DNA of 64,000 bases, from contig JBDTZG010000010.1 in the NCBI GenBank assembly GCA_040005235.1, positions 1 to 64,000 of the forward strand, read 5' to 3'. The position numbers were made by a program, and so were the translations under genes. Below the pieces are notes generated by a model, which made no database searches, was not told the origin of the DNA, and was given only the letters and a program-made list of their open reading frames with translations. This DNA is from Acidobacteriota bacterium. GTDB taxonomy: Bacteria > Acidobacteriota > Thermoanaerobaculia > Multivoradales > UBA5704. Positions 255 to 16,695 of this stretch are shown here, piece after piece (within the stretch, counting starts at the first letter, position 1; every line of letters begins with the position of its first letter).

Positions 255-285
255 CTTCGCGAGGTCGAGGCGCTCACGCTCAAAC

Positions 286-588: not shown

Positions 589-634
589 CGCTCCCGGGCT
601 TCGACGGCGGGTTTCAGCGGTAAGGAAAGCGCGG

Positions 635-666: not shown

Positions 667-680
667 TTGGGCTCTTTGGA

Positions 681-1643
681 TCAGAAACCGCAGCCGTCGG
701 ACGGCGGTACGTCGGCGAGGATGTCGACGTTCGGCAGGGTGTTCCAGCGCATTGAGAAGTCGAGCACGTTGCCGTTGGGCGGGAAGAGCATCGCGTTGTG
801 AATCCGATCGACCGCTCCGGGGGTGAGGCGCGAGGCCCAGAGGCGGCCGGCTTGGCATTCGGAGACGGGGCTGCCGATCAGGACTCCGACCAGTTGGCGC
901 TGGCCGGCGATGAAGACGTAGACCGGCGAGCCGCTCTGGCCGCCGACGCCGTCGTTGGTGAGGAAGAAGAGACCCTTCTCGCCGCCGTCCTGCCAGACCG
1001 CCGTGGTGTCGAGGAAGTTGTTGGCCGAGCCCGTCTGCCAGAGGGTGCCGATGTTCTTGTCGCCGGGATAGCCGATTGAAAACGGCGTGAGGTCGCCGAC
1101 CGTCGCCCACGACTGGTAGGAAAACGCCATCGGCACCGCCCCCGCGATGGGGTTGGCCAGCTCGATGATCGCGTAGTCGAGCGCTTTGTTGGTGGTGGTT
1201 CCCGCCCCCGTGTAGTCCGCGGGGACAAAGGTGCGCAAGGCGTAGTGGTCGCCGAACGGCCGGCTGCACGGCCCGGCGTTGAATTGCGCGAGACGGAAGC
1301 GGATGGGTCCCTGACGGAAGTCGTTGTTGCCGTCGATCACGCAATGCGCCGCGGTGAGGACGTACTTCGAGCCGATCAGCGTGCCCGAGCAGCCGGGCGC
1401 CCCCGAGAGATCGAGCCGGCCGACGTGACGCCAAGGAGAGTTGGCCGAAAGGGCGACGGCCGCGGTGGTCGGCCCCTGGACCCGATCGTCGCAGCCGAGG
1501 ATCTGGACCGATGCCGAGCATTGAGAAAGACAGGCGGTGATCTGCGCCGCGGCCGGCGGGAGCGGTGCCGCTAGCACCACGAGAGAAGCGAAAGAGGCGA
1601 AGCGGGCGGCGCGGCGGACGGTATGAGCGACGGGGGTCAACAT
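681..1643 (-). CDS. Secreted trypsin-like (S1, V8-type) serine protease
   Basis: Signal-peptide-like N-terminus. Catalytic motifs TAAHC, LDYAII and GGQSGSP, plus GYPGDK. Start chosen at ATG 1643. Confidence 0.88.
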   Translation of the reverse strand: MLTPVAHTVRRAARFASFASLVVLAAPLPPAAAQITACLSQCSASVQILGCDDRVQGPTTAAVALSANSPWRHVGRLDLSGAPGCSGTLIGSKYVLTAAHCVIDGNNDFRQGPIRFRLAQFNAGPCSRPFGDHYALRTFVPADYTGAGTTTNKALDYAIIELANPIAGAVPMAFSYQSWATVGDLTPFSIGYPGDKNIGTLWQTGSANNFLDTTAVWQDGGEKGLFFLTNDGVGGQSGSPVYVFIAGQRQLVGVLIGSPVSECQAGRLWASRLTPGAVDRIHNAMLFPPNGNVLDFSMRWNTLPNVDILADVPPSDGCGF

Positions 1644-1887
1644 GGCGGCGATCTCCGGGTGCGGCGAAACGAAGACTGGGCAACTCCGGCCTTCACACCC
1701 CTGAACGAAGCTCACGCTCGGAATCCCTCACCTCGGGAAAAACCAGGCAGGTGCCCGGCCCGGAAGCCGAGCCGGGCACCTCGTGCTCCGCGCCGCCGGG
1801 GCGGCACAAGGATTTCGCCAACGACACCCCCTCCGCTTCCGTATACCTCCCCGTCCCCGAGAGGACCATCCGCAGAAAGGGCTCGCG

Positions 1888-3873
1888 ATGCGCCGCACCT
1901 ATTTGAAGACCGGAACCTGCCTTGGCGCGCGAGTCGCCCTAGCTGCGGCCGCGCTCGCCCTGCTCGCCGCCGTTCCTGCTGTCGCCGCGAACTGGAAATC
2001 GGCCGGTCCCGCAGGGGGGTTCAATCGCATCGCCCAGGCTCCGAGCGAGCCGGGCCGGCTCTATGGCGGGACGTCGGCCGCCGGGGGATTCGGCAGCCTC
2101 GACGGCGGCCGGAGCTGGCGCCCTCTGCCGGGCCTGTCGGGCCTCGCCGCGCCGATCTTAGAAGCCGTGGCCGTGGCGCCGGACGACGCAGACACGGTCT
2201 ATTTCTTCTCGCACGCCAACGAAGGCGACCAACTCCTCCGCAGCCGCGACGGCGGCGCTCACTTCGAGCGGCTGGTCAATGGATTGACTTCGGGGGCGAC
2301 ACAATTCACGGCCCTGGCGATCGCACCTTATGACGCGCGCATCCTCACCCTCGGCACGAACGACGGCGTGTTCCAAAGCGACGACGGGGGGGACCTCTTG
2401 CACAGCACCTCGTTCTCCGGCCAGGAGATTCAAGGGCTGGCGTTCGATCCGAACGGACCACGTAACGTGATTGCCGTCGTCAATACCGGGTCGAGCGCGC
2501 CGTCGGTCTGGCTCAGCCGCGACGGGGGCCTGAGCTGGAGTGTGACCGCCGGCCCGGACGGCGGATTTCCGTTCCTGCGTCCCGTGTTCGATCCGGTGCA
2601 GATCGGTACCCTCTACCTGGTCTCGGGATTTCGCCTGTTCCGATCCCCTGATCTCGGCGCCACCTGGACGGAAGTGCCCACCGGCCGCAACGACATCACG
2701 GACGTTGCGGTCCTGTCCGACGGCACCTTACTCGCAGCGAGCTTTTCCGGCATCTACCGGAGCGCCGATGGCGGGGCCGGATGGTTGTCCTCCGGTCCCG
2801 AGCCGGCCTCAATCCGCCCGGCGCAGCCGGTCTTCCGGATCGACCCTCTATCGGACGGTGCCGCGGTGGGCGCCTTCGCGCTCGGATCGAGCGGGCTCTG
2901 GCGCACGGACGACGGCGGCGAGACCTGGTCCGAAGCCAGCCGCGGGATTCGCGCCCACACCGTGATCGGCCTTGAAGCGGGGTCCGCGATCTACACCAAC
3001 CTGGACGGCGCGGGCGTCTTTCGCAAAACGACCGCGACGGGTCCCTGGGTGAAAACCCATCCGGGAACGACGCTGCCGCTGCCGGGCCTCGACTACTCCG
3101 CCGATCACCTCCGACTGCTAGCGGTCGATCCGCGCAATCCCAACATCGCGCTAGCCGATTTCGGCAGCCGCCTGGTCCAAACCCGAGACGGCGGCCTCAC
3201 CTGGCCGACCCGGCTACCCGCCACGCCGGACGCTTTCGGGTTGAACATCAACGCCGCCGTCTTCGCGCCGAGCAATCCGAAGTACGCGTATGTCTCGGCC
3301 CTCAAACTGTCGAGCGTTGACGGCGCGGAGAACACCCTCTGGCGCAGCCTCAATCGCGGATTCACCTGGGAAAAGGTCAACGCCTTCGGCAATCTCCTGG
3401 CGCTCGCGGTCGATCCGCGCAACCCCAAGAAGCTCTACGCGGCGAGCAACGCCACCTTCGCAGTGAGCGAGAACGGCGGCGTCAGCTGGCAAACGATCGG
3501 CCGTGGTCTGCCGACCCGCATCAGCCCGAGCCGCTCGATCCGCATCGACCCCGGCGATCCCCAGCACATTTATCTTTCGACCCGTCCCGGCGTCTGGGAG
3601 AGCCGCGACGGCGGCACGACGTTCCACCACCTGGGAACCAATCTCGGCAACGTTCTCGTCAATCGCCTGGCGCTTGACGCTTCCGGTCTCTACGCCAGTC
3701 TCCCCGATCGCGGCATCTTCCGCTGGAACCTGACCTCCCGAATCTGGCAGCCGGTCGGCAACCGGTTTCCCGCCGCCAACTTCAGCGGAACCTTCGTCCT
3801 CGATCCCCACCGCCCGGGGCGTCTCTGGGCCGCCACCTTCGGCGCAGGGTTGTTCAGCCTGGAGCCGGAGTAG
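1888..3873 (+). CDS. Secreted BNR/Asp-box (VPS10-like) beta-propeller protein
   Basis: Signal peptide ending AVA. Many S-x-D-G-G-x-(S/T)-W repeats and VDPRNP motifs. Confidence 0.88.
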   Translation: MRRTYLKTGTCLGARVALAAAALALLAAVPAVAANWKSAGPAGGFNRIAQAPSEPGRLYGGTSAAGGFGSLDGGRSWRPLPGLSGLAAPILEAVAVAPDDADTVYFFSHANEGDQLLRSRDGGAHFERLVNGLTSGATQFTALAIAPYDARILTLGTNDGVFQSDDGGDLLHSTSFSGQEIQGLAFDPNGPRNVIAVVNTGSSAPSVWLSRDGGLSWSVTAGPDGGFPFLRPVFDPVQIGTLYLVSGFRLFRSPDLGATWTEVPTGRNDITDVAVLSDGTLLAASFSGIYRSADGGAGWLSSGPEPASIRPAQPVFRIDPLSDGAAVGAFALGSSGLWRTDDGGETWSEASRGIRAHTVIGLEAGSAIYTNLDGAGVFRKTTATGPWVKTHPGTTLPLPGLDYSADHLRLLAVDPRNPNIALADFGSRLVQTRDGGLTWPTRLPATPDAFGLNINAAVFAPSNPKYAYVSALKLSSVDGAENTLWRSLNRGFTWEKVNAFGNLLALAVDPRNPKKLYAASNATFAVSENGGVSWQTIGRGLPTRISPSRSIRIDPGDPQHIYLSTRPGVWESRDGGTTFHHLGTNLGNVLVNRLALDASGLYASLPDRGIFRWNLTSRIWQPVGNRFPAANFSGTFVLDPHRPGRLWAATFGAGLFSLEPE

Positions 3874-3951
3874 GAGGAGTCGGCGGCGCAAAACCGCGCG
3901 GAATCAAACTCCAGCTTGATCCTATCGCCGCATAGGGTTACGCTCCGAACC

Positions 3952-4245
3952 ATGCAAGTGGTCGCGATGCAGGAACTTGAGGATCACCTCGGCGAGTACG
4001 TCCGGCGTGCTCAGGCAGGAGAAACGCTCCTGATCACCTCCCACGGTGAAGTCGTTGCCGAGCTTCGCTCCTCCAAGCTCGACCCCGCGAGCGATGCCCC
4101 TTTGAGCGGCCTCCAAGAGCTGGTTCGCCGAGGGACCGCACACGGTGTTGTCCGTAACGATCCCTCGCAGTACCGGACTTACGAACGGGTAACGAACAGC
4201 ACCACCGCCCAAGATCTCCTGAACTGGGATCGCAACGATCGGTGA
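3952..4245 (+). CDS. Phd/YefM-family antitoxin
   Basis: ELEDHLGEYVRRAQAGETLLITSHGEVVAEL pattern. Stop overlaps the next GTG start (GTGA). Confidence 0.8.
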   Translation: MQVVAMQELEDHLGEYVRRAQAGETLLITSHGEVVAELRSSKLDPASDAPLSGLQELVRRGTAHGVVRNDPSQYRTYERVTNSTTAQDLLNWDRNDR

Positions 4246-4376
4246 TCGTTTACGCGGAGTCGAGCGCCGTGCTGTCCTGGCTGTTCGGCGAGCCGCGGGG
4301 GTCTGAGGTCCGCAGCATCCTGGAAAGTGCCGAGTTTGTCGTCACCTCGGATCTCACGCTGATTGAGGTCGACTGA
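4242..4376 (+). pseudogene. Truncated PIN/VapC toxin (N-terminal 44 aa only)
   Basis: MIVYAESSAVLSWLFGEP...TSDLTLIEVD then TGA. There is no room for the remainder before the convergent RluA-family gene. Confidence 0.72.
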
Positions 4377-4403
4377 ATATCGCCCGTACCCGAAGCTGAA
4401 GCC

Positions 4404-5387
4404 CTACCGTCCGCCCTTCCGGCCCGCCCGCAGCCGGTCCAGGATCTCCAAGAAATCCTCCGGCGGCGGCTCGTCGAATTGGAGCCGGGCGCCGCTGTGG
4501 GGGTGGTCGAAGCCCAGCTCGGCGGCGTGGAGCATGGGGCGGGAGGCGACGATCCGCGGCGATTTTCCGGCGCCGCGAATGTAGACCTTCTCCCCCACCA
4601 GCGGGTGTCCGTCCTCGGCGAGGTGGATGCGGATTTGATGGGTGCGGCCGGTTTCGAGCTCGCATTCGACCAAAGTCGCCCCGGCGAGACGTTCGATCGG
4701 GCGGATGCGGGTGGCCGCGCGCTTCGCTTCCCTGGGCGGTCCTCCCGGTCCGCGCCAGGAGCCGCGCAGGCCGTCGCCCCGGTCTTCGACCAGCCAGCTC
4801 TCGATGTCGGCGGCTTCGACGTTCCCCTCCGCGATCGCGAGATAGCGCCGTAACGCCGCATGCTCGCCGAGCTGCTCTTGGAGCTTGCGTTGGGCCGGGA
4901 TGTTGCGTGCGAAGACGACCAGGCCGGAGGTCTCCTTGTCCAGGCGCTGGACCGCCCGCAGGGTGAGGTTCGGCTTATTTCCCTTCGCCGTCTCCCGCCG
5001 CCTCAAGGCGACGCGGGTGAGCGCGATCAGGGTGTCGCGGTCCTTGTCCTCGAACGGCACGGTGAGGACCCCCGCGGGTTTGACCACCACGGCGACGTCC
5101 GGATCGGAATGGACGATCCGAATCACCGGCACCGAGGGCACTCCCCCGGGCCGCGTCGCGGCGATCTCGATCTTGCTCTCGGCCTCGGGCCGGAACGCCG
5201 CCTCGCGCTCCACCCGACCGTCGACCGTCACCCCCCCGGCCACGATCCGCTCCCGCGCCGCGCGCCAGGAGAGTCCCGGCTCCGACTCCCTCACCCGCGC
5301 CGCGAGCGTTGGAATCTCAAGACCCGGCGCCTTCTCGGGTAGGGGTTTCGGCTTCGGCTTTCTCGGCCGCTTTCTCATCACTGGCAT
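4404..5387 (-). CDS. RluA/RluD-family pseudouridine synthase with S4-like N-terminal region
   Basis: KPAG, QRLDKETSG (catalytic Asp), TGRTHQIR and LHAAELGFDHP motifs. Confidence 0.93.
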   Translation of the reverse strand: MPVMRKRPRKPKPKPLPEKAPGLEIPTLAARVRESEPGLSWRAARERIVAGGVTVDGRVEREAAFRPEAESKIEIAATRPGGVPSVPVIRIVHSDPDVAVVVKPAGVLTVPFEDKDRDTLIALTRVALRRRETAKGNKPNLTLRAVQRLDKETSGLVVFARNIPAQRKLQEQLGEHAALRRYLAIAEGNVEAADIESWLVEDRGDGLRGSWRGPGGPPREAKRAATRIRPIERLAGATLVECELETGRTHQIRIHLAEDGHPLVGEKVYIRGAGKSPRIVASRPMLHAAELGFDHPHSGARLQFDEPPPEDFLEILDRLRAGRKGGR

Positions 5388-5488
5388 CTTCTGGGGCTCT
5401 CCTCTCGCTCAGTGTATCTCGCGCCCCCCACCCAGCCCCTTCCCGGCCCCAAGCCGCGCTGATACACTCCAAACAATCCGAAGATTCG

Positions 5489-6127
5489 ATGATGGACTCC
5501 AAAGAGTTGCAGGCGATTCTCCAACGGGCGCTCGCGGGCGACCCGGCAGCGCAATGCGAGCTGGTCGACCTGCTCACCCCGGTTATCCAGAAGCGGGTCG
5601 CCCGCGCGCTGCTGAAGTACTGCCAGGGTCCTTCGGGTGCGCGCAACGTTCACCAGGAGGCGGGGGATCTTACCCAGGAGGTCTTCTTCTACCTGTTAGC
5701 CAAGGATGCGCGCGTGCTGCGCCGGTGGGACCCGGAGCTCGGTCTGTCGCTCCTGAATTTCGTCGGCTTGGTGGCAGAGCGGCGTGCCTTGTGGATCCTG
5801 CGCGGCAGGCTGAGCCCCTGGATCGACGAACCGACGTTGATCGAAGAGCTGCCGGACCAGCCGTACAGCGGCGACAATCCGGAGCGGGCAGCGTCCTCAC
5901 GCGAGATCCTGCGGCTGCTGCTCGATCAGTTAAAAGATCGCCTCTCTGCCGAGGGTTGGCACATGTTCGACCTGCTCTTCCGGCAGGAGCTGTCGCCAGC
6001 AGAGGTCGCCCAAAGAACCGGCAAGAGCCTGGCCGCGGTCTACAAATGGCAGAGCCGGTTGAGCCAGTTAGCGCGTCGTATTCTCGCCGAGTTGTCGAAT
6101 TCGGACGGAGAACCGCAAAATCCCTGA
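5489..6127 (+). CDS. ECF-type RNA polymerase sigma-70 factor
   Basis: Region 2 DLTQEVF and region 4 HTH LSPAEVAQRTGKSLAAVYKWQSRL. Confidence 0.88.
   Translation: MMDSKELQAILQRALAGDPAAQCELVDLLTPVIQKRVARALLKYCQGPSGARNVHQEAGDLTQEVFFYLLAKDARVLRRWDPELGLSLLNFVGLVAERRALWILRGRLSPWIDEPTLIEELPDQPYSGDNPERAASSREILRLLLDQLKDRLSAEGWHMFDLLFRQELSPAEVAQRTGKSLAAVYKWQSRLSQLARRILAELSNSDGEPQNP
6092..6123 (+). promoter_or_regulatory. Candidate ECF promoter, copy 1 (inside the sigma 3' end, upstream of the anti-sigma gene)
   Basis: TTGTCGA-16 nt-GCAAAATCC, same spacing as the three other copies. Confidence 0.7.
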
Positions 6128-6128
6128 C

Positions 6129-6929
6129 ATGAGAGAACGACCGACGATGGATGACACAGGACTCCTACGCGATCTGGCCCGCGCCGCCCGTGAAGAAGAG
6201 GCGGAAGAGCGCGACCTTTGGGATCGCTGGGACCGCCTGACCGACGGCACGCTGTCGCCGGAAGAGGAAGCCGAGCTCCGAGCGTTGGCCCAAAGCTCTC
6301 CCGAAGCGGAGCAGGCCTACGAGGCGTTTCGCCCGCTTTCCCCGGAGTTCCGCGCCAAAATGGTGGCCGAGATCGGGCCGATGATCCGACCGTCTCTGTT
6401 CATCCGCTGGCGCGACGCCTTCATCCGTTGGCGCGACGCACACCTCGTCGTGTGGCGTGCCGCCTATTCCGGATCGGGGCTCGCGTCAGCGGCGGCGGCG
6501 CTGTACTTCATGGTGTCGCTTCCTGCCGTGCCGTTGTTCGTGGTCGAACTCGAGCCGGTCTTGGCTATTCGCGGCGATTCGACGGTCTTCACACCGGGCG
6601 GAGGGTTCAAAGCGACGGTCTGGCCGGAAAAAGAGACTTCATCCCGGTCCCAGATCAACCTCCGGTGCTACATCGAATCCAAATCTCCCGCGGCCAAACC
6701 GCTTCGCGCAATTCAATGCGTCGTCGCCGAGCGCTTGAAAACGGGCTGGATGTCGATCCAAGGGCGCCTTCCCAAAGACCAATCGATCGGACCCTCGACG
6801 CTCTGGCTCGTCTTCGCCTACTCCGGCAATCAACCCGACTTGGACGAGGTCGGAAAAGTCGCGAAAACGCACACCAAAAGCCGAGATTGGAAGGCTGTAC
6901 CGAGTCCGATGGAAATCCGGGCGCCATGA
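6129..6929 (+). CDS. Putative membrane-bound anti-sigma factor
   Basis: Starts 1 nt after the sigma stop. Helical N-terminus with GTLSPEEEAELR (anti-sigma-like), one hydrophobic segment (LASAAAALYFMVSL), then a beta-rich C-terminal domain. Alternative start at 6147. Confidence 0.65.
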   Translation: MRERPTMDDTGLLRDLARAAREEEAEERDLWDRWDRLTDGTLSPEEEAELRALAQSSPEAEQAYEAFRPLSPEFRAKMVAEIGPMIRPSLFIRWRDAFIRWRDAHLVVWRAAYSGSGLASAAAALYFMVSLPAVPLFVVELEPVLAIRGDSTVFTPGGGFKATVWPEKETSSRSQINLRCYIESKSPAAKPLRAIQCVVAERLKTGWMSIQGRLPKDQSIGPSTLWLVFAYSGNQPDLDEVGKVAKTHTKSRDWKAVPSPMEIRAP

Positions 6930-6933
6930 TGCG

Positions 6934-9519
6934 ATGACCCCGCGCCGCATCCTGCTCGTCGGCTTGATCATTTTAACTCTGGCGGCAGCCCTGCCTAGCG
7001 GCTGCGGGACTCCAGCTCCAGCTCCAGCTCCCCCGCCTTCCTATCTCAGCGTCGAGTTTACCGGCTGCTTGGCCACCGCATCTCCGGGGTCCGTCTGCAT
7101 CCTCGACAAAACGCGACGCCTCACCCTTTGGGTGCCAGAGTCCATCGAGTCGGAAATCAAGATCCGTTCCGGAGGTTGCAACCTTGAGGGGGAAGGGGAG
7201 CCCAGCGACGAAGGAGTACGGTACATCGTCACGATTCCCAAAGGGGCGGAGCGGATCGAGGTCGTCCGAACAAGTCAAGTAGGCGGAGAGGCGCGCTGGA
7301 CCCTCGCCGTCGCGGGACCGCGTCCCCTCAAGAAGGGGGAGAACGATGTTCAAGGCGAAATCAACCGAATTACAGCCATGCTTTGGAAATCGATTCAAGA
7401 CCTTCGATTCGCGGAAGTACATTCCGGCTTGGACCGCCTTGATCGACTCGCCCAGGAGACGAGGCTCCCCTCCATCTCGCGATACTACCTGGCCTATTAC
7501 AAAGGTTTGCTCGCGGGCAAGGAGGAAGACTACCGCCAGGCCCTCTCCGAGTTGACACGCGCTGGAACGATCGCTCGACAGGTGAATCTACTGAGGGAGG
7601 CCTGGGTCGCCGACGAAGCTCTTGCGCTTCGTTGGACCGAGCTGGGCCGGGCCAAAGAAGTTTCGGAGGTATATGAACGCCTGTCAAAGTCACCCGCCGC
7701 CAAGGACGGCTGTGAACGCGGCCAGCTCCTGATCAACTGGGCCTGGGCCACCTTGCTCGCGCGAGAAGCTGGAGGATTTCCCGTTGCCGGGCTGGCAGAG
7801 CCTTTGCCTCTCCTTGACAGGGCTTCGAAGGAGCTGCGCGCGGAGACGAAATGCACATCGAGCCTCTACTACGATCTGCATTTCAATCGGGCGCTCGCCG
7901 AGCTCCAAGCCGATCGCCCCAAGCTCGCGGCCGAGGCACTCGCAAACGCAAGCGCCTTCGACGAAGGGACCACCTTTTTTCAAACTCTCTGGGAGCTCGA
8001 CCTCGAAGCGCGGCTGGAAATCGAGCGTGGCGCCTCTCGTCGAGCCCTCGAAATCTATCGGCAACTGGAAGTTCAGGCTCGCCACGCGGGCTCTCCCGAT
8101 GGTCAGTTGCGCGCCGCGGTGGGAAAGGCAAAGGCAAAGGCCGCACTCGGAGACAGCGAAACGGCCTTGAGCCTCCTTGCCCACGCGGAAGACTTGCTCA
8201 ACCGCGAGAGCCTGCAGATTCCGCTTCACGAAGGGCGGGAGACCTTCGTATCGCAACGGGAGGGAGTGGAAAGCCTGGAGATCGGGCTCCTTCTAGAATC
8301 GGGAAGGAACGCCGACGCCCTTGCCGCCGCGCGTCGAGCCCGAACCCGATTCCTGATTCAGCTCGCCTCCGCGGAGCGCGTGGCGGGCCTATCGCCCTCC
8401 GATCGAAACGTTTGGAGTCGGGCGATCAACAGCTATCAGACAAAGCGCGGCCAAGCCGATGAAATGGCGCGCAACGAACGCTTCCTTTTCGCCTCTCAAC
8501 TCGGCCCCAACCGAGCCGCGCAGAAGGCCCTGGTCGCTGAGGGCGAGCATGACCTCGAGCAGGCGTTCGCACTTCTCGGTGATCTACCTCAGCGTCAGAC
8601 GCCCTCTCCTCCTCGGCCAGGCGAGCTGTTGCTGGCTTTCCACCCGATCCAAAACGGCTGGGTCGCATTCTCCTCGGATGGCAAGAGAGTCGCGTCGAAC
8701 GCTTTCGATCTGACGCCGGCTCTCCTCCAGAATCCCGCCGCGCTGTCCAAGGAGGTGCTCGCACCTTTCCACGATGCGATCCTCCGAGCCAAACGCATCC
8801 GTATCCTGCCGTACGGCGCGCTTCGTGAAATCGATTTCCACGCCTTGCCTTTCGACGGCGACGTCCTCCTCGCAGCACGGCCCGTGGTTTACGGCCTCGA
8901 CCTTGCCGCGCCGCGCCGCGCACAGTCCCGCGGCGCGCCGAAGCGAAAAATGGCCCTGCTGGTCGACGATCCCAACGACAACCTCCCCGCTGCACGGCGC
9001 GAGGCCGAAATAACCGCCCAAGCGATCGGACGCTGGAAGCGACCTTGGGATGTAGTCCGGCTCACCTCTACAGGCGCCACCAGCGAGGCGATCTGGAAAA
9101 ACCTCGCCAAGGCGGACCTTTTTCATTTTTCGGGACACGGCACGTTCGGTGGAATCGGCGGTTGGGAAAGCGGCCTCCGAGTCGCCGACAAGGGAGAATT
9201 GACCGTCGGCCAGCTACTCGTAGTCCCCCGATCGCCTCGCTGGATCGTGCTCTCGGGATGCGATACGGCGCGGGCGGCAACGGATACCCGGATCGAGGGA
9301 TTCGGCCTCGCGAACGCCCTGGTTCTTGCCGGAGCAGAAAGCGTGATCGCTTCCGTGCGGCCCGTGGTGGATCGAACCGCCCCCTCATTATTTGGCCACC
9401 TCTACGGCGATTGGGACGGTGAAAGCGATCTGGCCGAAGCTCTCCAGCAGGCCCAGCTCGCCTGGAGGCGGGAGATGCCGAACGTCGACTGGCAGAGCTT
9501 CCGGATCATCGAGCCGTAA
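6934..9519 (+). CDS. TPR-CHAT (caspase-like peptidase) protein, probable lipoprotein
   Basis: Signal peptide with LPSGC lipobox-like motif and a helical TPR-like middle. CHAT motifs LREIDFHAL, NLPAARREA, FHFSGHG (His), VLSGCDT (Cys), GLANALVLAGA..VIAS and WQSF. Confidence 0.9.
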   Translation: MTPRRILLVGLIILTLAAALPSGCGTPAPAPAPPPSYLSVEFTGCLATASPGSVCILDKTRRLTLWVPESIESEIKIRSGGCNLEGEGEPSDEGVRYIVTIPKGAERIEVVRTSQVGGEARWTLAVAGPRPLKKGENDVQGEINRITAMLWKSIQDLRFAEVHSGLDRLDRLAQETRLPSISRYYLAYYKGLLAGKEEDYRQALSELTRAGTIARQVNLLREAWVADEALALRWTELGRAKEVSEVYERLSKSPAAKDGCERGQLLINWAWATLLAREAGGFPVAGLAEPLPLLDRASKELRAETKCTSSLYYDLHFNRALAELQADRPKLAAEALANASAFDEGTTFFQTLWELDLEARLEIERGASRRALEIYRQLEVQARHAGSPDGQLRAAVGKAKAKAALGDSETALSLLAHAEDLLNRESLQIPLHEGRETFVSQREGVESLEIGLLLESGRNADALAAARRARTRFLIQLASAERVAGLSPSDRNVWSRAINSYQTKRGQADEMARNERFLFASQLGPNRAAQKALVAEGEHDLEQAFALLGDLPQRQTPSPPRPGELLLAFHPIQNGWVAFSSDGKRVASNAFDLTPALLQNPAALSKEVLAPFHDAILRAKRIRILPYGALREIDFHALPFDGDVLLAARPVVYGLDLAAPRRAQSRGAPKRKMALLVDDPNDNLPAARREAEITAQAIGRWKRPWDVVRLTSTGATSEAIWKNLAKADLFHFSGHGTFGGIGGWESGLRVADKGELTVGQLLVVPRSPRWIVLSGCDTARAATDTRIEGFGLANALVLAGAESVIASVRPVVDRTAPSLFGHLYGDWDGESDLAEALQQAQLAWRREMPNVDWQSFRIIEP

Positions 9520-9544
9520 CGTTTCAGCTCGATCTCGCGCCCAA

Positions 9545-9576
9545 TTGTCAAATTCAGACAGTTGGCGGCAAAAGCC
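9545..9576 (+). promoter_or_regulatory. Candidate ECF promoter, copy 2 (upstream of the S8 protease)
   Basis: TTGTCAA-16 nt-GCAAAAGCC, followed by a GAGGAG RBS. Confidence 0.72.
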
Positions 9577-9599
9577 TCTTATCGGAAGAGGAGATCCTT

Positions 9600-11729
9600 A
9601 TGAGATCCATCATGAAACGCCGGTCACGTTGGTTGAGTTGGTCGTTCGCAGTCGCAATTCTGTGCGCAGGCTGCCAGATTCGTCCCCAAACCCCCGTCGA
9701 TGTTCAAACCGCCGTCAAGCAGTCTTATCCAGCCTGGTCGTTCATCGGCCTCAAGAGCAACCCCGACAAACAATGCCCCGGGATTGATGAGAAAAACTGG
9801 GAGGTCCACGAGCTCTTCGAAAAGCCTGGCCAGGCTTTGGGGAAGGCCGAAGCGCCTCTGAGAGAAGCCGAGGAATCCCTCACGGCTGGTAGTCGTTCCA
9901 AAATTGCGATACCCGATCCATTCGGACACACCAACCGAACCTTGGAACAGGTCCGAACGGACATGAAGCGATTCTGCCTCTATCGCTGGATCGGCGCTGA
10001 GGGGAAGGCACGCATTCCAATCGGATCGATCGCTGACCTGGCCCGGCTCGACGCCGATCCGATGGCTTTGGCCACATCCGCCGAGCCGGCGCTCGCTCGG
10101 GTCCTTCAGCCCCGTCTTTCAGATCATTTTTTCCGCGAGGTCGGCCGCACCGGAATCTCGCTGCCGATCGACGAGAAGGCGCCGAAGGTTCGTCTGGCGT
10201 TCCTTGACAACTTCCCGACGACCCCCGATGGAGATGGCCCTCCCGCCGACGTGGAGGAGTCCCCTCCCGCCGTAGGATGCCCCTCCAATCATGGAGATTT
10301 CCTACGTCTCCTCGGGCGGGCAATGACCTGCGAGGATCAAGGTTGCGCAGCCGAGATCCGTAGCCGCCTCGCGTTGGCCTATCGAAAGTTCGATCCGACC
10401 AGCGGATTCCTTTCGAAGCGCAGTACCGAATGCGGTGGGTATTTCGGCAACCTGGAGGACCTGGCACAGGCCATCCGGGAAGAGGTCCAGGACTGGCAGA
10501 AAGCAAACGCCCAGCAAGAGAAACCGAGTCCGCTCGTCTTAAATCTTTCGCTCGGCTGGGATGGTCGCCTATTCGGCGGCATCACCCAGAACGGGGATAA
10601 TGTTCCTTTCTGCAAACTCCCCGCGGGGCAACGAGCCGTTTACGACGCGCTGGACGAAGCTCACATCCTTGGGGTGCTGGTTTTCGCAGCGACCGGCAAT
10701 GACAGGGGAGGCCCGGTGCCGCTGGAAGGCCCTCTTTTGCCAGCCGCTTGGGAGCGGACGACGCCGGGAGAGGCCGAGGCCTGCGAGGGGGTGCAACGAG
10801 ACTACCCGTTGGTCTACGCCGTTGGCGGTCTGCGATCCGACGACCAGCCCTTGGCCAATGCCCAGCGACCCGGCGCTATGCCGAGCCTCGCCGCGTACGG
10901 CGACCATGCCGCCCTGGGCGCCTCAGGTCCCTATTGGCCGACCGGAACCTACACCGGAACTTCCGTCGCCACCGCGATCGTCTCTTCGACCGCCGCGGTG
11001 ATCTGGCATGCCAATCCCACCAAGAGCGCGGAGCAGGTGGTAAAGATACTCCGCAGCACACTTCCCGTCTCAGGGCTCCAGGCTGGCTTTGGGTTTTCAC
11101 CGACCGGCGCGCTCGCCGGACCGAATTCGGTTTGGCGAGTGTCCCTCTGCTCGTCACTCGCAATGGCCGGTAATTCGCTGGGCACCTGCTGCGCGCCTCA
11201 AAAACCCAGGCCGCCGCAACTCTCCCACCTGCTCAATCTGCCGCCGGGAGAGGCTTGGCCAGCCCTCACTCCGCGGGAGATTCCGAAGTGCAAAGGCCCA
11301 AACTCCACCGAGCCAGTAAATCCAGCGCCCGATGTCGACGTTTACTGTCCTTCAGACGCATTGCTCGACATCGGATCGATCCCGGCCGCTCATCCGCAGC
11401 CTGGAAACGACCCTTGCCCCAACTGCGCTGATCCTCCCCGCAGGGCGTTGGCGTTACTGACCCCGACCACGGAGCATGTTCTCTATCTCGAGATCGCACC
11501 CAACTGGCCCGAGGATCGAGAATTGCTTTCCGCGACGTTCGAGACCAATACTGCAGATCACTCGTCCTACTTCATCAAAGGTCCTTTCCTCCGGGGAGCG
11601 GCTCGCGAAGTGGTCCTGCCGGGAAGTATCTTCCCCTTCAATTCGGATACGAAGGCAATGATCAGCTGGAGAGTTCTGATTGATGGTGTTTCTTACTCCT
11701 TGCGAACTCCCGTGTTCATCGCGAACTGA
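9600..11729 (+). CDS. S8 subtilisin-like serine protease, probable lipoprotein, Cys-rich
   Basis: Lipobox-like CAGC. Catalytic LAFLD, NHG and GTSVATAIVS motifs, VLNLSLGW, and oxyanion AATGN. Alternative start at 9612. Confidence 0.85.
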   Translation: MRSIMKRRSRWLSWSFAVAILCAGCQIRPQTPVDVQTAVKQSYPAWSFIGLKSNPDKQCPGIDEKNWEVHELFEKPGQALGKAEAPLREAEESLTAGSRSKIAIPDPFGHTNRTLEQVRTDMKRFCLYRWIGAEGKARIPIGSIADLARLDADPMALATSAEPALARVLQPRLSDHFFREVGRTGISLPIDEKAPKVRLAFLDNFPTTPDGDGPPADVEESPPAVGCPSNHGDFLRLLGRAMTCEDQGCAAEIRSRLALAYRKFDPTSGFLSKRSTECGGYFGNLEDLAQAIREEVQDWQKANAQQEKPSPLVLNLSLGWDGRLFGGITQNGDNVPFCKLPAGQRAVYDALDEAHILGVLVFAATGNDRGGPVPLEGPLLPAAWERTTPGEAEACEGVQRDYPLVYAVGGLRSDDQPLANAQRPGAMPSLAAYGDHAALGASGPYWPTGTYTGTSVATAIVSSTAAVIWHANPTKSAEQVVKILRSTLPVSGLQAGFGFSPTGALAGPNSVWRVSLCSSLAMAGNSLGTCCAPQKPRPPQLSHLLNLPPGEAWPALTPREIPKCKGPNSTEPVNPAPDVDVYCPSDALLDIGSIPAAHPQPGNDPCPNCADPPRRALALLTPTTEHVLYLEIAPNWPEDRELLSATFETNTADHSSYFIKGPFLRGAAREVVLPGSIFPFNSDTKAMISWRVLIDGVSYSLRTPVFIAN

Positions 11730-11747
11730 CCGTCCACTTTCCTCTCA

Positions 11748-11777
11748 AGCCCCGCCCGCCCGGGCGGGGCTATTCTC
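11748..11777 (+). terminator. Hairpin, possible intrinsic terminator
   Basis: 10-bp perfect stem AGCCCCGCCC / GGGCGGGGCT after the S8 stop. The T-tract is weak. Confidence 0.5.
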
Positions 11778-11820
11778 GCCTGTATACCTTGATACCCTTT
11801 TTCATCAAATCTCCTTCAGA

Positions 11821-11852
11821 TTGTCAAGAAATTCTCATGCGCAGCAAACACC
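11821..11852 (+). promoter_or_regulatory. Candidate ECF promoter, copy 3 (upstream of the small-protein pair)
   Basis: TTGTCAA-16 nt-GCAAACACC. Confidence 0.72.
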
Positions 11853-11987
11853 TCTTCGAAGGCGCTGACCTGAAATCAGGCGGCGAGGCTTACGGGTACG
11901 GAGTCAAGACCGCAGTCGACTCGAGCAACGATCTGCGGCTCGATCTTGGTTGGCCACCTTCTCACACAAAAAGCAAGGAGAGCTGAA

Positions 11988-12239
11988 ATGGCGTTCAACA
12001 ATGTTGGGTTTGGAACGATCGCGCCTGGAACAAGTCAACGCTGGTTCTATTCCTTCGGCGGCACGGATCACGGAGCGCAGTACTGCATGGCCAATCCGCT
12101 GAATCCCGGGGCCTGCCTTCAGGTGAACGATCAGACCAAGTGCAAGAACAGCGACGGTACCATCACCTACTGGGTCACCATCCGAAACATCGGCAGCTTC
12201 ACGACCAACTTCAACATTCAAGGCGGCGGTCTGTCTTGA
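11988..12239 (+). CDS. Small (83 aa) beta-rich hypothetical protein
   Basis: AAGGAG RBS and ATG. Gly/Asn/Thr/aromatic-rich, 3 Cys, ends QGGGLS, no signal peptide. Confidence 0.8.
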   Translation: MAFNNVGFGTIAPGTSQRWFYSFGGTDHGAQYCMANPLNPGACLQVNDQTKCKNSDGTITYWVTIRNIGSFTTNFNIQGGGLS

Positions 12240-12255
12240 CCGAGGAGAGCCAAAA

Positions 12256-12507
12256 ATGAAAATGACGATCATCGTCGATGCCGCCGGAAGAGTCGTAGGC
12301 GCAACTCAGTCGGTGGCCATCGCGAAGGGCGCAAAGGCTTCTACGATCGAAGCCGGAGTCGTCGCGGATCCAGGCCAGAGCGTTCATGAGGTCGAGGTTT
12401 CCGACGAAGTGGCACACCTGGCGGGGCCGGATCTTCTCGAGCGTCTGGCAGGCGAAGGCGGCCTGAAGAAGGCCTTGAAGTCACTCGTAACCGCAGGCCA
12501 GGCGTAG
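12256..12507 (+). CDS. Small (83 aa) hypothetical protein
   Basis: GAGGAG RBS, 16 nt after the previous stop, protein-like composition. Confidence 0.75.
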   Translation: MKMTIIVDAAGRVVGATQSVAIAKGAKASTIEAGVVADPGQSVHEVEVSDEVAHLAGPDLLERLAGEGGLKKALKSLVTAGQA

Positions 12508-12625
12508 CGGTTTCAGAGCGGTTCAGGAAGGCAAGAGGGGCGCCGCATCGCTTGCGGCGTCCCTTGATGCGTCTGTCCCGCTTCCTCAATTGGCCTCCCG
12601 GAATTCCTTTCGTTTCACCTTTTCC

Positions 12626-12657
12626 TTGTCAAACATTCCTCGCCCCAAGCAAACACC
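12626..12657 (+). promoter_or_regulatory. Candidate ECF promoter, copy 4 (upstream of the metalloprotease)
   Basis: TTGTCAA-16 nt-GCAAACACC. Confidence 0.72.
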
Positions 12658-12742
12658 CTGACAGGGGACCAAAACCTCCGCGGGCGCATCGCCTTCGGGA
12701 AACCACCCCACGGGCCGAGCGCCCGGTCAGGAGAAAATCATC

Positions 12743-14809
12743 ATGTCTTCGGCAGACCCCACTGCGGCGGATGACCGCGATAACCTTTCTTTGGAAGAGA
12801 TGGACGGAGCGATGGTCCTGGCCGATGGCGTGGGCCAGGTACCGAGTGGCGACCCGAGCCAGGGGGACGAAGCGGACGGGGCGGCGATCAGCTTGCCCTC
12901 ATTGGTCCGCCCGGTCAGCGGCCGCTATCGCAATACGACCGGCGGCTTGCAGCTTGAGCTGCGGGTGGACGTCGACCGCGCCCGACCGATGAAGCGGGTC
13001 TCCGGCGACTTCTACTTCACCAGCGGCTCGACCACCAGCTACTTCGGCTCGTTCGCCGTCAACTCCCCCTCCATCACGGTCACCGTCACCGACGTCACGA
13101 TCAAAGGCCTCGGCAGCTTCACCTGGGCGGCCGGCGCGCCGGTGGTTCAGGTCACCATCCCGCGGCGAACGATCTTTCAGCCGCAGGCACCGGCCACGCT
13201 CCGTTTCTTCCAAACCAACGGATCGCCGGGCGCGGTCTATGTCTGCACGTTCGAGTCGATCTACTTCCGCACCGTGCGGATCGAAACCGATCGCGTGTCG
13301 GACGTCTCGACCCCCATCCTCGCCAGCTACAACACCGGCTCGCTGCCCTCCGGCGGCTCCGCGAGAAACTTGAGTGTCGTGTCCGCCTATGCCGAAGCCG
13401 GCATTCAGATGATCCCGACCGCGGGGAGCGATGTGATCAACGTCGGCGAGGCCGGCGGAAACTCGATTTGGAGCAATGCCGAGCTGCACGCCTCGATGCA
13501 GCAGCACTTCACCCTTTGGAAGGATCTCCCCCAGTGGGCGGTCTGGCAGCTAGTGGCGCAGAACCACGAATTCGGGTCGGGACTCTACGGCATTATGTTC
13601 GATCAGCAGGGCAAGCAGCGCCAGGGATGCGCCGTGTTCCACGCCGGGATCGGCGGCACGACCGCCGACAAGTTGCGCCTACAGCTCTACACCTACGTCC
13701 ACGAGCTCGGTCACTGCTTCAACCTGCTGCACTCCTGGCAGAAAAGCCTTGCCAATCCCCCGGCGCTCAACCGGCCCGCCGCCCTGTCCTGGATGAATTA
13801 CCCGTGGTATTACCCCTTCGGCAACTCCTCCGGCAACGCCGCAGCCTACTGGGCGAGCTTCCCGTTCCAGTTCGACAACGAAGAGATCGTCCACCTGCGC
13901 CATGCCTTCTACAACAACATCGTGATGGGCGGTAACAACTTCATCGTCGGTTCGGCGCTCGGCCGCGACGTGCTGGCCGATTCGATTCGCGACGATTCGG
14001 GGCTCACGTTCACGATTTCCACCCACCAACGGAGCTTCGCGCTCGGTGAGCCGGTGGTGGTCGAGCTGGCACTTTCCACCTACGACCCGCGCGGGCGCCG
14101 CGTCCACAAATGGCTTCACCCGAACTGCGGCCTGGTCAAGATCGTGGTCGAGAAACCGAGCGGCGAAGTGGTCGGCTACGAGCCCGTCATCGACCATCTG
14201 GTGGGCGAGAACGAAACCATCCTCTACCCGGGCGAGCAGATCACCGACAGCGCCTACATCGGCTTCGGCAAAGAGGGTCTCACCTTCGACCAGCCCGGCA
14301 ACTATCGGCTGCGCGCCGTCTACGCTGCGCTCGGCGGCTCGCAGGTCCTGTCGGAGATGCTCGACCTACGCGTCCGGTATCCGGTCACGGCGGCAGCTGA
14401 AGAGCTCGCCGATCTGTTCATGGGCGACGAGCAGGGAACGTTGCTCTATCTGCTCGGCTCGGATCACGAGTCGCTGCGGCGCGGCAACGATGCGTTCGAT
14501 CTGGTGCTCGACAAACACGGCAAGAGCGACCTTGCGCAATACGCCCGCCTGGTCAAAGGGGTGAACGCGGGCCGGGCGTTCAAGACCGTCGATCGGGACG
14601 CGTCGGCCGGCGTTACGGTGCGTCCGGCGCAACCGGAGGAGAGCGCGAGCCTGCTCTCGGCCGTCGCGTCGTCCGGGGTTCTCGATAGGGTTTCGAACGA
14701 GATGGTGCTCACCCAGCTCGCCGCGGTCCAATCGCTCGGCGGCAATCCGGAGGCCGCCGCCACGACCTTGGGCAAACTTTCGGCGAAGAAGACCCGCGGT
14801 CCAAAGTAG
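12743..14809 (+). CDS. Zinc metalloprotease (metzincin-like), no signal peptide
   Basis: HELGHCFNLLH (HExxHxxxxxH) and a Met-turn-like SWMNYP. AGGAG RBS. Confidence 0.85.
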   Translation: MSSADPTAADDRDNLSLEEMDGAMVLADGVGQVPSGDPSQGDEADGAAISLPSLVRPVSGRYRNTTGGLQLELRVDVDRARPMKRVSGDFYFTSGSTTSYFGSFAVNSPSITVTVTDVTIKGLGSFTWAAGAPVVQVTIPRRTIFQPQAPATLRFFQTNGSPGAVYVCTFESIYFRTVRIETDRVSDVSTPILASYNTGSLPSGGSARNLSVVSAYAEAGIQMIPTAGSDVINVGEAGGNSIWSNAELHASMQQHFTLWKDLPQWAVWQLVAQNHEFGSGLYGIMFDQQGKQRQGCAVFHAGIGGTTADKLRLQLYTYVHELGHCFNLLHSWQKSLANPPALNRPAALSWMNYPWYYPFGNSSGNAAAYWASFPFQFDNEEIVHLRHAFYNNIVMGGNNFIVGSALGRDVLADSIRDDSGLTFTISTHQRSFALGEPVVVELALSTYDPRGRRVHKWLHPNCGLVKIVVEKPSGEVVGYEPVIDHLVGENETILYPGEQITDSAYIGFGKEGLTFDQPGNYRLRAVYAALGGSQVLSEMLDLRVRYPVTAAAEELADLFMGDEQGTLLYLLGSDHESLRRGNDAFDLVLDKHGKSDLAQYARLVKGVNAGRAFKTVDRDASAGVTVRPAQPEESASLLSAVASSGVLDRVSNEMVLTQLAAVQSLGGNPEAAATTLGKLSAKKTRGPK

Positions 14810-14889
14810 AACCGTAGAGGCGAGTATGCTTCCGCGGGCCGGGTTCCGTGCCCGGCCTGCGGTTTTCCCCTGGAGAAGAGAGGTTTACC

Positions 14890-15183
14890 ATGCGTCTAAA
14901 CGTCAAGTTGCGCGACGGTTTCCTGAACGATACGGTCATCGCCACCGTGAACGGCAAAGAGGTTTTTCAAAAAGCCGGAGTGCAGACCGACCTTTCCCTC
15001 TCGTTCGCGGATGGTTTCGAGATCGAGGTCGAAGATCCGGAGGTCGAGCTGGGAGTCGCCGTAGCGGGCGGACCGCGGGCGACGCGGAAGGTTCGGCTGG
15101 CCGAGACACCGTTCGTGGAGGTCAGTAAGAACGCCGGGGATCTGGAGATCCGCGCCTCGGCGGAAGAGGTTCCGATGATGTGA
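14890..15183 (+). CDS. Small acidic beta-rich hypothetical protein
   Basis: GAGAGG RBS, 97 aa, directly downstream of the metalloprotease. Confidence 0.7.
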   Translation: MRLNVKLRDGFLNDTVIATVNGKEVFQKAGVQTDLSLSFADGFEIEVEDPEVELGVAVAGGPRATRKVRLAETPFVEVSKNAGDLEIRASAEEVPMM

Positions 15184-15235
15184 GCCGTTTCGGCTCGTTG
15201 CGTCCGTCTCTTGATAGAGGGGAGGGAAAGTTCTC

Positions 15236-16624
15236 ATGACACCCAGAAACCACTTCACCTGGCCGCCGCCCGGCGACGAGGACAAGCAGTTCCATAACGA
15301 GGTCGCGGCGCCTGCGGTGATCTTGCAGGCGCTCGGGGCGGACATCACAGTTAACCCGCCGCGCGAAAACCTCGCGCAGGCGCGGCTCGCTTCGCGGCCG
15401 AAGTCGTTGGCAGAGTGGCTCGAGACGAAAGATTCCGACGGTTCCGGCCTGGCGTTGGGCGGCGGCCGAAGCTGGAATCATCCGCAACTCTTAATGGCGG
15501 CGCGCGGCCTGGTGCTCGGCGATTGGGGCGACGCGGGCAAGCTGATGGCGATGCAGGCGGGGCGAATCCCCGGCGATGGGATGGAGGCATTTCTCGACGG
15601 CGAGGAGCCGCGGAGCACCGATTACGATCCGTACCGCTGGGCGGCCGGGCTGATCTTTGCGAGCGACAAAGCGCCGGCCGAAATCCGGGAGGATGCGCGG
15701 ACGGTGCTGCGGCGCCAGATGGGCCTGGCTCTCCTCGGTGCGGTCGCCTGGACCGACGAAGGGGACGAGTTCCGCAATGCCAAGGGCGCGCCTTACTATC
15801 GGGGCCCCACGCTTTCGCCGGTTGGCGAACGATCGCCGAAGACTTCGAATCCAGACCTGCTCGGTCTGTTTTGCCGCCTCGTCCTGGGCCGTGACGACCT
15901 TTGTGATCGCGACGGGTGGGCCTGCACGGTAGCCGACCTCGTCGGCATCGAGGCGCTCTTTTCGCCGCTCGATCTCGAGACGATCCACATGCCGAACCCG
16001 GCCCTCAAGTTGATCGACGACGCGAAAGTGCACGGGGAGTTCCGGTTCGTCGAGTACCCGGAAGGGCGCCTGGTGATGCGCCCGAACCAGCTGAACTCGA
16101 ATACCCCTTCGGCTCTCTGGAGCTTTGCCGACCATGTGACGAAGCGGCAGGTGCGCGGCTTCCCGTTCGATCCGAGCCGGAAGAACCGCGGCGCAGGCGC
16201 CCCCAGGTCGGTGGGATGCACGATCGAGGACGGCGAAGTCGTCGCGCGGAGCACCGACCCGCAATTCACCGCGCGGTTCAAGCTCCCGACGTCCGAGCCG
16301 CTTTGGACGGTCGTGATCGACGGCAACGGCGCCCGATTCGAAACCGGCGTCGGAACGCCACCCGGACCGGTCACTCCTCCCCTGCCCGATTCCCCGCCGG
16401 TCGATCGGCCTCCGGTCCCCGAGATCGACATCGAGGGAATCGTCGCCCAGGTGATCGCCCTCGGCGCACAGGACGACCAGACCGATCCGGCCGTGGCACT
16501 CGTGAGGGCCGAGGATTGGCAGGCGGCGAGCGCAGCCATCGGCGGCATGTTGGTGCCGAAAAAACGGATACCCGTCCGGGACGCCCTCGCCAAGCGGCTG
16601 GCGGATCTGGCGGAGGACGACTAG
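15236..16624 (+). CDS. Hypothetical protein with Pro-rich linker and short helical C-terminal domain
   Basis: 462-codon ORF with GGAGG RBS and GC-rich third positions. No motif recognised. Confidence 0.75.
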   Translation: MTPRNHFTWPPPGDEDKQFHNEVAAPAVILQALGADITVNPPRENLAQARLASRPKSLAEWLETKDSDGSGLALGGGRSWNHPQLLMAARGLVLGDWGDAGKLMAMQAGRIPGDGMEAFLDGEEPRSTDYDPYRWAAGLIFASDKAPAEIREDARTVLRRQMGLALLGAVAWTDEGDEFRNAKGAPYYRGPTLSPVGERSPKTSNPDLLGLFCRLVLGRDDLCDRDGWACTVADLVGIEALFSPLDLETIHMPNPALKLIDDAKVHGEFRFVEYPEGRLVMRPNQLNSNTPSALWSFADHVTKRQVRGFPFDPSRKNRGAGAPRSVGCTIEDGEVVARSTDPQFTARFKLPTSEPLWTVVIDGNGARFETGVGTPPGPVTPPLPDSPPVDRPPVPEIDIEGIVAQVIALGAQDDQTDPAVALVRAEDWQAASAAIGGMLVPKKRIPVRDALAKRLADLAEDD

Positions 16625-16640
16625 AGGGTTCGAAAGCTAC

Positions 16641-16670
16641 GCTCTCACCCCCGACCTCGGGGGTGAGGGC
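16641..16670. terminator. Hairpin (terminator or REP-like)
   Basis: CTCACCCCCGA / TCGGGGGTGAG stem between two genes. Confidence 0.4.
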
Positions 16671-16695
16671 CGCCGCCTCTGCGATAATCACCCGC

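Follow-up and report, generated by a model that had tools for sequence, protein, structure and literature searches.

Why does one short bipartite sequence recur four times, always in the same orientation, within a single gene cluster? The question is raised by a locus in a 64,000-nt stretch of DNA from an Acidobacteriota bacterium (assembly GCA_040005235.1, contig JBDTZG010000010.1, positions 1–64,000; hereafter the window), in which copies of the motif TTGTCRA-N16-GCAAAnnCC lie among genes for a sigma factor of the extracytoplasmic function (ECF) type, a probable membrane-bound anti-sigma factor, a TPR-CHAT protein, an S8 subtilase and several further products. On the sequence evidence set out below, we hold with high confidence that the motif is the −35/−10 promoter of the sigma factor encoded at 5489–6127 and that the regulon of this sigma in the genome is this locus alone. 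The wider explanation, in which the locus forms a membrane-gated switch with a proteolytic output, strikes us as likely when taken as a whole, with its parts carrying different weights.

A promoter-like motif confined to one locus

The four exact copies reported in the initial annotation are present, all on the plus strand, at 6092–6123, 9545–9576, 11821–11852 and 12626–12657. The pattern has no match in 100 dinucleotide shuffles of the window, a comparison that overstates the case because the pattern was taken from these same four copies, and we therefore relied on matrices built from held-out sites. One matrix from 67 downstream sites of other loci and another from 44 embedded sites of other loci each recovered the four copies and nothing else scoring at least 10 in window positions 1–20000. 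When two mismatches were allowed, a single extra window site appeared at 49455, inside a kinase open reading frame (ORF), against a shuffle mean of 0.77. A scan of the whole genome (6,224,448 bases in 140 contigs) matched the strict pattern only at the four window sites, the shorter form TTGTCRA-N16-GCAAA likewise, and spacers of 15 and 17 nt gave no match anywhere in it. A scan for sigma-70 promoters and terminators stayed at shuffle level, with no sigma-70 site at the four copies, and Rfam returned no match in window positions 5300–17300.

Matrix and near-match checks of the genome revealed no credible motif site outside the window locus and a paralogous locus on contig C5. Thirteen near-matches considered as remote targets were rejected, as they lie inside called genes, antisense, or at a gene end without a same-strand gene behind. 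A pattern one base shorter gave a fifth match, C18:23457; it reads as the opening codons of a short ORF, the next gene called on its strand is 436 nt away, and the match was set aside. Across 41 genomes this pattern matched in 14, with 27 matches against 2 for a reversed control; 20 loci carrying it were inspected, and 8 were family loci and most others chance-like.

Copy 1 lies inside the 3′ end of the sigma gene, ahead of the anti-sigma and TPR-CHAT genes, where it occupies the last codons of ORF 5489–6127 (L-S-N-S-D-G-E-P-Q-N-P-stop); copies 2, 3 and 4 are intergenic and precede the starts of the S8 gene by 23 nt, of a pair of small-protein genes by 135 nt and of an HExxH-protein gene by 85 nt, the last with an orthologous site and leader in the related locus L005. 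By analogy with the −10 numbering of sigma-ShbA, transcription from copy 1 would start near 6127–6130 (PMC12019637). The sigma factor itself, 212 aa on the plus strand, matches TIGR02937 at 43.9 bits (cut-off 42.9), and its family profile matches sigma-ShbA (PDB 9isn) over its length at E 3e-6. It is a short protein of the sigma-70 family with regions 2 and 4 only, and the motif is bipartite, has a rigid spacer and is oriented ahead of the target genes, as in the ECF (group IV) class.

Conservation of the motif in related loci

A search with the sigma factor confirmed 87 loci, of which 80 were kept; with the window and C5 these make 82. The closest relatives are titled Thermoanaerobaculia (Acidobacteriota), and the kept loci are mostly titled Acidobacteriota or Myxococcota, with no Actinobacteria among them; Polyangium fumosum DSM 14668 (L066) and Sorangium cellulosum So ce26 (L050) are carriers available in culture. 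Homologous loci do keep the motif at the sigma 3′ end: an embedded site scoring at least 14 is present in 45 of the 82, namely in 40 of the 44 Acidobacteriota-titled rows (window and C5 included) versus 5 of the 38 other rows. The family motif reads YTGTCAR(AAA)-N16-GCRAArrCC, with AAA as the first spacer bases, and the window form is a local variant of it, so the idea of a locus-specific motif gives way to that of a family motif with a clade-specific variant.

Strand and position also distinguish these sites from background. A loose pattern, written after the sigma 3′ ends had been viewed, occurs downstream of sigma in the 82 loci 79 times in sense versus 20 times in antisense orientation (704 kb), and upstream 19 versus 17 times (698 kb), and bases outside the search pattern (AAA at 8–10, C at 32) are conserved in the 76 downstream and 44 embedded sites. 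A matrix trained on the embedded sites alone found a site in 39 of 51 gaps between the CHAT and S8 genes, versus 1 of 51 on the antisense strand and 5 of 443 control genes, two of these five being S8 genes from rearranged loci. A second matrix scan gave 77 sense and 2 antisense sites downstream, with the sense count being circular and given less weight. Across 35 mapped loci the sites fall nearly always in gaps ahead of same-strand genes, and an unguided repeat finder returned the motif as the top family in L009 (6 copies) and L018 (4 copies). With the genome-unique, strand-specific copies of the window, these sites in relatives support the locus-confined ECF-type promoter that had been proposed.

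The embedded copy and two wirings

The copy inside the sigma gene can be separated from the protein sequence that it encodes. In six loci (L005, L006, L031, L047, L057 and L061) the sigma stop codon falls within the motif, and the constraint therefore acts on the DNA. Across the 45 embedded loci the stop lies 1 nt past the motif in 14, 19 nt past it in 19, in an overlap with the start of the anti-sigma, and at other places in 12; the distance from motif end to anti-sigma start is 8–23 nt in 42 and exactly 18 nt in 23. The proposal that this copy serves the anti-sigma and CHAT genes is supported by embedded sites at a fixed distance in relatives.

Eighty loci had sufficient DNA upstream of the sigma gene to place them by site: 44 have an embedded site only, 6 a site before sigma only, 1 both and 29 neither, counts on which any test is inflated by kinship. 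The embedded-only and pre-sigma-only loci mean that two wirings exist. One, in some mostly myxobacterial loci, is ordinary self-activation of sigma; in the other, that of the window's clade, the promoter would renew the inhibitor and the CHAT protein and not sigma, and a matrix scan located no motif copy upstream of the window sigma gene. In two rearranged loci (L054:5172–11427 and L076:5170–11490) the gene order is CHAT, S8, sigma, anti-sigma with a site before S8, an arrangement in which the promoter of S8 may let the sigma activate its own gene.

Motif variants and paralogues

The window form differs from that of most relatives in carrying A at positions 7 and 26, where most have G at both. 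The four window sites are without exception A/A, and the three C5 sites G/G. On the quick tree the A/A form belongs to one sigma clade of 7 rows (SH-aLRT 100); it occurs separately in L025 and L043. Within loci, 64 of 69 other copies carry the base of the embedded copy at position 7 and 66 of 69 do so at position 26, where the 69 include the window's three, the covariation statistics come from the quick tree and Fisher values are inflated by kinship. Judging by titles, a paralogue of the G type is present in the same genome for six of the seven A-clade loci (L001/L033, L002/L039, L003/L036, L004/L038, L005/L019 and window/C5), and none was seen for L006 among the collected loci. This pattern suggests that the two forms insulate paralogous switches from each other, and the presence of both in one genome provides a natural case in which to examine how orthogonality arises between ECF paralogues.

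Variant sites also occur beside other genes. In L025:3207–4688 and L043:8638–10110 an A/A site precedes a second sigma-like gene that is transcribed away from the family sigma, and a divergent gene with a copper amine oxidase domain in L001:8305–9830 has a G/G-type site in front. At L090:1501–1531, in genome G006, an A/A site lies 86 nt before a gene whose sequence reads as ricin-B-like repeats; it is on a different contig from that genome's sigma locus (L099) and is a possible remote target.

The probable anti-sigma and TPR-CHAT proteins

Behind copy 1, on the plus strand, lies the gene for the probable anti-sigma factor (6147–6929, 260 aa), whose N-terminal domain is helical and whose C-terminal domain is Ig-like, with a single hydrophobic segment between the two; the start at 6147 is preferred over 6129 because relatives begin MDD. 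This membrane protein very likely holds the sigma factor, and its topology fits that of an anti-sigma. The hydrophobic segment has a mean hydropathy above 1.6 in 28 of 32 relatives, and among the feature neighbours of the protein are anti-sigma clusters in which 63% of members carry zf-HC2 (score 0.92). A PDB profile search returned no solved relative, and fold searches, which did not extend to the N-terminal domain, returned a generic Ig-like sandwich only (best Z 9.4). Just before the membrane segment, a 21-nt tandem duplication at 6400–6441 encodes FIRWRDA twice, as it does in L001.

The TPR-CHAT gene follows at 6934–9519 on the same strand. Its product (PF12770) has a signal peptide, a lipobox-like Cys24 and an intact His735/Cys776 dyad, features from which we infer export. 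In an alignment that left out L045 and L075 (no usable start), L013 (interrupted) and loci in other orientations, the His-Cys dyad is present in 49 of 49 proteins and the Cys24 column is kept in 43 of 49. The window sequence alone had no PDB match; the family profile gave one, with DdvA (8rot, E 5e-13) as its best, and the modelled fold matches both Csx29 and DdvA. The CHAT domain also has a weak match to BovA models in PADLOC.

Several features tie the two proteins together. Their ORFs overlap or abut in most loci, and in two Haliangium loci, L056 and L059, they form one ORF with the layout of DdvA. In the aligned relatives the anti-sigma has Arg at position 142 in 31 of 32, followed by Gly in 25 and Ser in 5, and in the window this Arg142-Gly143 pair (6570–6575, plus strand) sits in a loop about 20 residues outside the membrane, where its conservation makes it a candidate site-1 cut. 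A complex model of the Ig-like domain with TPR-CHAT scored 0.56, against 0.00 for the best of three controls, with runs agreeing in at least 98% of contacts and partner pLDDT of at least 77. In calibration, 116 of 157 solved complexes reached the score mark, as did 2 of 215 mismatches; only 18 of the 157, and both mismatches, did so at 0.60 or below, and these counts hold only roughly for the analysis's own alignments. Within the A clade, identity is 35–44% for S8, 36–54% for the anti-sigma and 46–60% for CHAT, versus 62–76% for sigma and 69–93% for shared cargo.

A proposed switch

These features can be joined into a mechanism. The sigma factor, presumably made at low level from another promoter, would be held at the membrane by the anti-sigma; in response to a signal from beyond the inner membrane, the TPR-CHAT lipoprotein, itself exported, would act as site-1 protease and cut the anti-sigma, most likely after Arg142, whereupon RseP, for which the genome has a family gene (300.7 bits), would cut within the membrane and release sigma. 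We rate this sequence of CHAT cut and RseP release as evenly balanced between right and wrong, and the choice of Arg142 is a guess, as separases cut after Arg and craspase sites differ (PMC11506125). Free sigma would then fire the four promoters. Copy 1 would resupply the anti-sigma and CHAT proteins and not sigma, giving negative feedback and re-arming, so that the response should be a pulse; copy 2 would drive the S8 lipoprotein as the fixed output of the family; and copies 3 and 4 would drive exchangeable cargo units, each bounded by a hairpin. The likeliest purpose would be a protein-degrading response to an outside protein or cell, as in predation, competition or envelope attack. The initial annotation had called such a system caspase-gated, a description that the complex model backs weakly and that depends on the proposed cut.

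More tentatively, Acidobacteriota and Myxococcota may share one family of DdvA-like switches in split form, with an exported caspase-like lipoprotein that cuts a separate membrane anti-sigma in its conserved Arg-Gly loop, a sigma limited to negative feedback by the promoter at its gene's end, insulation of paralogues by two bases and swappable promoter-cargo-hairpin units behind a fixed subtilase.

Alternative explanations

Several observations weigh against the mechanism or its parts. On the promoter side, the embedded-trained matrix finds no site in 12 of the 51 CHAT-S8 gaps, neither an embedded nor an upstream site is present in 29 of the 80 loci noted above, and with 53 genome matches to the sigma70-ECF family, 39 of them over the cut-off, another sigma is formally possible. 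The insulation of paralogues rests on about two independent covariation events (the 7-row clade and the L025/L043 pair), and L003 has a G/G site in an A/A locus, L046 is mixed, and comparison of region 4 yielded no clean sigma residue code for the variant: L025 and L043 have A/A sites with G-type residues there, and L027 and L028 have G/G sites with A-type-like residues. The anti-sigma lacks zinc ligands and matches no curated family in Pfam or NCBIfam. As described in PMC11506125, mutants of the DdvA dyad were without effect at rest and no CHAT cleavage was seen. The HExxH and small proteins have no signal peptide, which fits poorly with a purpose based on secreted proteases.

Among the alternatives, the one to be taken most seriously keeps the promoter and the anti-sigma and removes CHAT as the gate, and we count it a substantial possibility, though not a probable one. 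The S8 or a general periplasmic protease would make the cut, or the Ig-like domain would bind the signal, and TPR-CHAT would be a shield, a sensor scaffold or an output. This would suit the place of the CHAT gene itself behind copy 1, like an output, the standing of S8 as the most constant target of the motif, the weak complex score, and DdvA, whose TPR-CHAT is shown in PMC11506125 only as a steric block to RseP. However, the invariant dyad and the near-invariant exposed Arg of the anti-sigma tie CHAT activity to the anti-sigma, as do the overlapping or abutting ORFs and the fusions in L056 and L059.

The remaining alternatives question the promoter itself. We consider it improbable that the main reader of the sites is a different sigma (that of C5 or some other ECF factor), with the local sigma redundant or in cross-talk. 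The window and C5 motifs do differ at two bases only, and L003's G/G site and the many ECF genes of the genome point the same way, but all four window sites have the A/A form, which tracks the local sigma clade, and credible sites are confined to the window and C5 loci. Less probable still, the motif might be an operator bound by some regulator other than a sigma, or might mark cargo cassettes for recombination: cargo does vary between loci in units bounded by hairpin and motif, yet the motif is non-palindromic, keeps a fixed orientation, a rigid 16-nt spacer and a fixed distance to the anti-sigma start, has a −10 half resembling that of sigma-ShbA (PMC12019637), and occurs inside sigma and before S8, where no cassette can be meant, while a repeat search of the window found no longer repeat common to the cargo cassettes. 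Finally, copy 1 might be a by-product of protein conservation, since it encodes a recurring S-x..R/Q tail, with the rest due to chance or to an antisense sigma-70 −35 element, since TTGTCAA reads TTGACAA on the other strand and three copies hold a minus-strand TTGACA. The stop codons inside the motif in six loci and the same motif in non-coding gaps already contradict this, most relatives have TGTCAG in place of TTGTCAA, and no minus-strand sigma-70 site lies at the copies, which leaves it barely credible.

S8, cargo genes and neighbouring features

All further genes and hairpins of the locus are on the plus strand. The S8 subtilase (9600–11729; PF00082) has a signal peptide, a lipobox-like LCAGC and the Asp, His and Ser motifs. 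It is constant across the family, while the genes behind it vary. It is followed by a GC-rich terminator-like hairpin at 11748–11771 (z −3.6), similar to one in L003, L005 and L006. Behind copy 3 come two 83-aa proteins: the first (11988–12239), with no signal peptide seen, belongs to an unnamed widespread family (Atlas clusters 0.96–0.97) and has one weak partial match in 60 relatives, and the second is at 12256–12507. A 13-bp terminator-like hairpin at 12535–12565 (z −3.2 for the gap) closes the pair. The leader behind copy 4 (12658–12745) folds into a long stem (z −2.7) that is conserved in L005 and has no Rfam match, and the probable zinc metalloprotease that follows (12743–14809, 688 aa, HELGHCFNLLH, no signal peptide seen) matches myroilysin weakly (E 0.007), is 89% identical in L005 and belongs to a large unnamed family across phyla, with 1300 homologues in a set of 8000 scored candidates. 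The fourth transcript may end at 14833–14861, where a 12-bp hairpin precedes TTTT (z −2.8 for the gap). The 97-aa gene at 14890–15183 also stands behind the HExxH gene in L005 (76%), and because it lies behind this hairpin its membership of the regulon is uncertain. The next gene, for a 462-aa protein (15236–16624), lies at the 3′ end of loci L001, L003 and L006, directly behind its own G/G site in L003, has 24 homologues among 8000 scored candidates and may belong to the regulon. The small pair and the HExxH, 97-aa and 462-aa proteins have no family match in Pfam, NCBIfam or PADLOC. Of the predicted output of two further proteases and three small proteins, the third small gene is in doubt.

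Since S8, the small pair, the HExxH gene and the 462-aa gene are each followed by a strong hairpin, copies 3 and 4 stand at the head of separate units. In L005 the same post-S8 hairpin leads directly to the HExxH promoter, and the window's small-gene unit thus looks inserted together with its own promoter and hairpin. We scanned 57 proteins for domains (48 neighbours, 2 fusions and 7 anti-sigmas), and in relatives the genes directly behind sites encode further S8s, a protein with a thermolysin-type propeptide, one trypsin-like protein, a class 3 lipase and one protein with a barrel domain, along with many products that have no family match. At E 1e-4, PADLOC models matched none of the 34 proteins other than CHAT that were compared with them, a search that unknown defence genes could escape. 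One cargo family without a Pfam match recurs behind motif copies, at L015:7935–10250, L018:19366–20556, L022:17088–17858 and L037:14130–16433.

Elsewhere in the window, one trypsin-like and one BNR-repeat protein are encoded upstream of the locus (681–3873) with no motif copy, and a second ECF-like sigma lies directly before a Ser/Thr kinase with TPR repeats (47667–51169). Signs of a mobile element at 37805–45735 and 56824–58563 comprise a VirD4/TraD-like coupling protein, a large serine recombinase and a 1396-aa protein with peptidoglycan-endopeptidase-like and choice-of-anchor J matches.

Comparison with known systems

The initial annotation did not recognise the system as described, which is too strong in view of DdvS/DdvA, the ECF54 neighbourhood and E. 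coli rseAP3. Our searches of the open literature yielded no description of this family, motif or wiring, and an ECF group elsewhere in the classification supplement (PMC7826278) may cover it.

The closest precedent is DdvS/DdvA of Myxococcus xanthus, where a TPR-CHAT anti-sigma is combined with four local sigma-dependent promoters (PMC6061681, PMC11506125). The two systems share an ECF sigma, a single-pass anti-sigma, a TPR-CHAT fold with its His-Cys dyad outside the membrane, four locus-confined promoters (putative in the window, as is its anti-sigma) with a 16-nt spacer, and RseP as the proposed second cut. They differ in that the window's anti-sigma and TPR-CHAT are separate ORFs (fused in L056 and L059) and include an Ig-like domain; that, in contrast to DdvA's CHCC zinc domain, the N-terminal domain of the window anti-sigma has no Cys and its alignment no conserved Cys or His; that the motif is TGTCAR-N16-GCRAA here versus GTAA-n16-CGT for DdvS (PMC6061681); that no motif promoter precedes sigma in the window locus, unlike for DdvS; and that the output is S8 with varied cargo versus the CBASS and CRISPR-Cas targets of DdvS.

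ECF54 likewise has CHAT-TPR and subtilase genes as neighbours of its sigma, and proteolytic control has been proposed for it (PMC7826278 supplement; PMC8999054). However, that group is 100% Actinobacteria, a phylum with no kept locus here, is said to lack an anti-sigma and has a carboxypeptidase-regulatory-like gene at +1 (PMC7826278); the +1 gene here encodes a helical domain, a membrane segment and an Ig-like sandwich with no Pfam match. Its predicted motif, GTATCAG / CTCC, has only TCAG in common with ours, and then with the G variant.

The embedded copy recalls E. coli rseAP3, a sigma-E promoter inside rpoE that drives the anti-sigma operon without sigma (PMC8595263). More than 230 nt separate that promoter from rseA downstream, and a further sigma-E promoter, upstream of rpoE, works alongside it, whereas the embedded copy here is some 18–23 nt before the anti-sigma start, and 44 of the 45 embedded loci have no upstream copy.

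In the Craspase system (Csx29/Csx30/CASP-sigma), a TPR-CHAT protease was shown to cut a separate anti-sigma (PMC10028731), three sigma motifs lie in its own locus, and the Csx29 fold is matched by the window CHAT. That system is cytoplasmic, triggered by RNA via Cas7-11 and without a membrane anti-sigma, whereas the window locus has no CRISPR effector. Streptomyces sigma-ShbA (ECF40), which alone among PDB entries matches the sigma profile at E up to 0.1, shares the 16-nt spacer and the G-C-G-A start of the −10 element; it is distant (E 3e-6), its −35 element is CGTAAC, it has no anti-sigma and its target is hrdB (PMC12019637).

Each piece of the switch thus has a precedent, and the combination is a variant of a known switch type. 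If the proposed mechanism is true, no earlier site-1 protease of the periplasmic CHAT type would have had its cut site named. The motif labels, locus by locus, unknown proteins that the system would switch on. For DdvA, the lack of a known signal and the union of enzyme and substrate in a single chain kept it open whether CHAT is the first protease (PMC11506125). In the window the presumed enzyme and substrate are two proteins, conservation points to a candidate cut site and the promoter offers a ready reporter, so that in this two-protein system the step left open for DdvA would become assayable.

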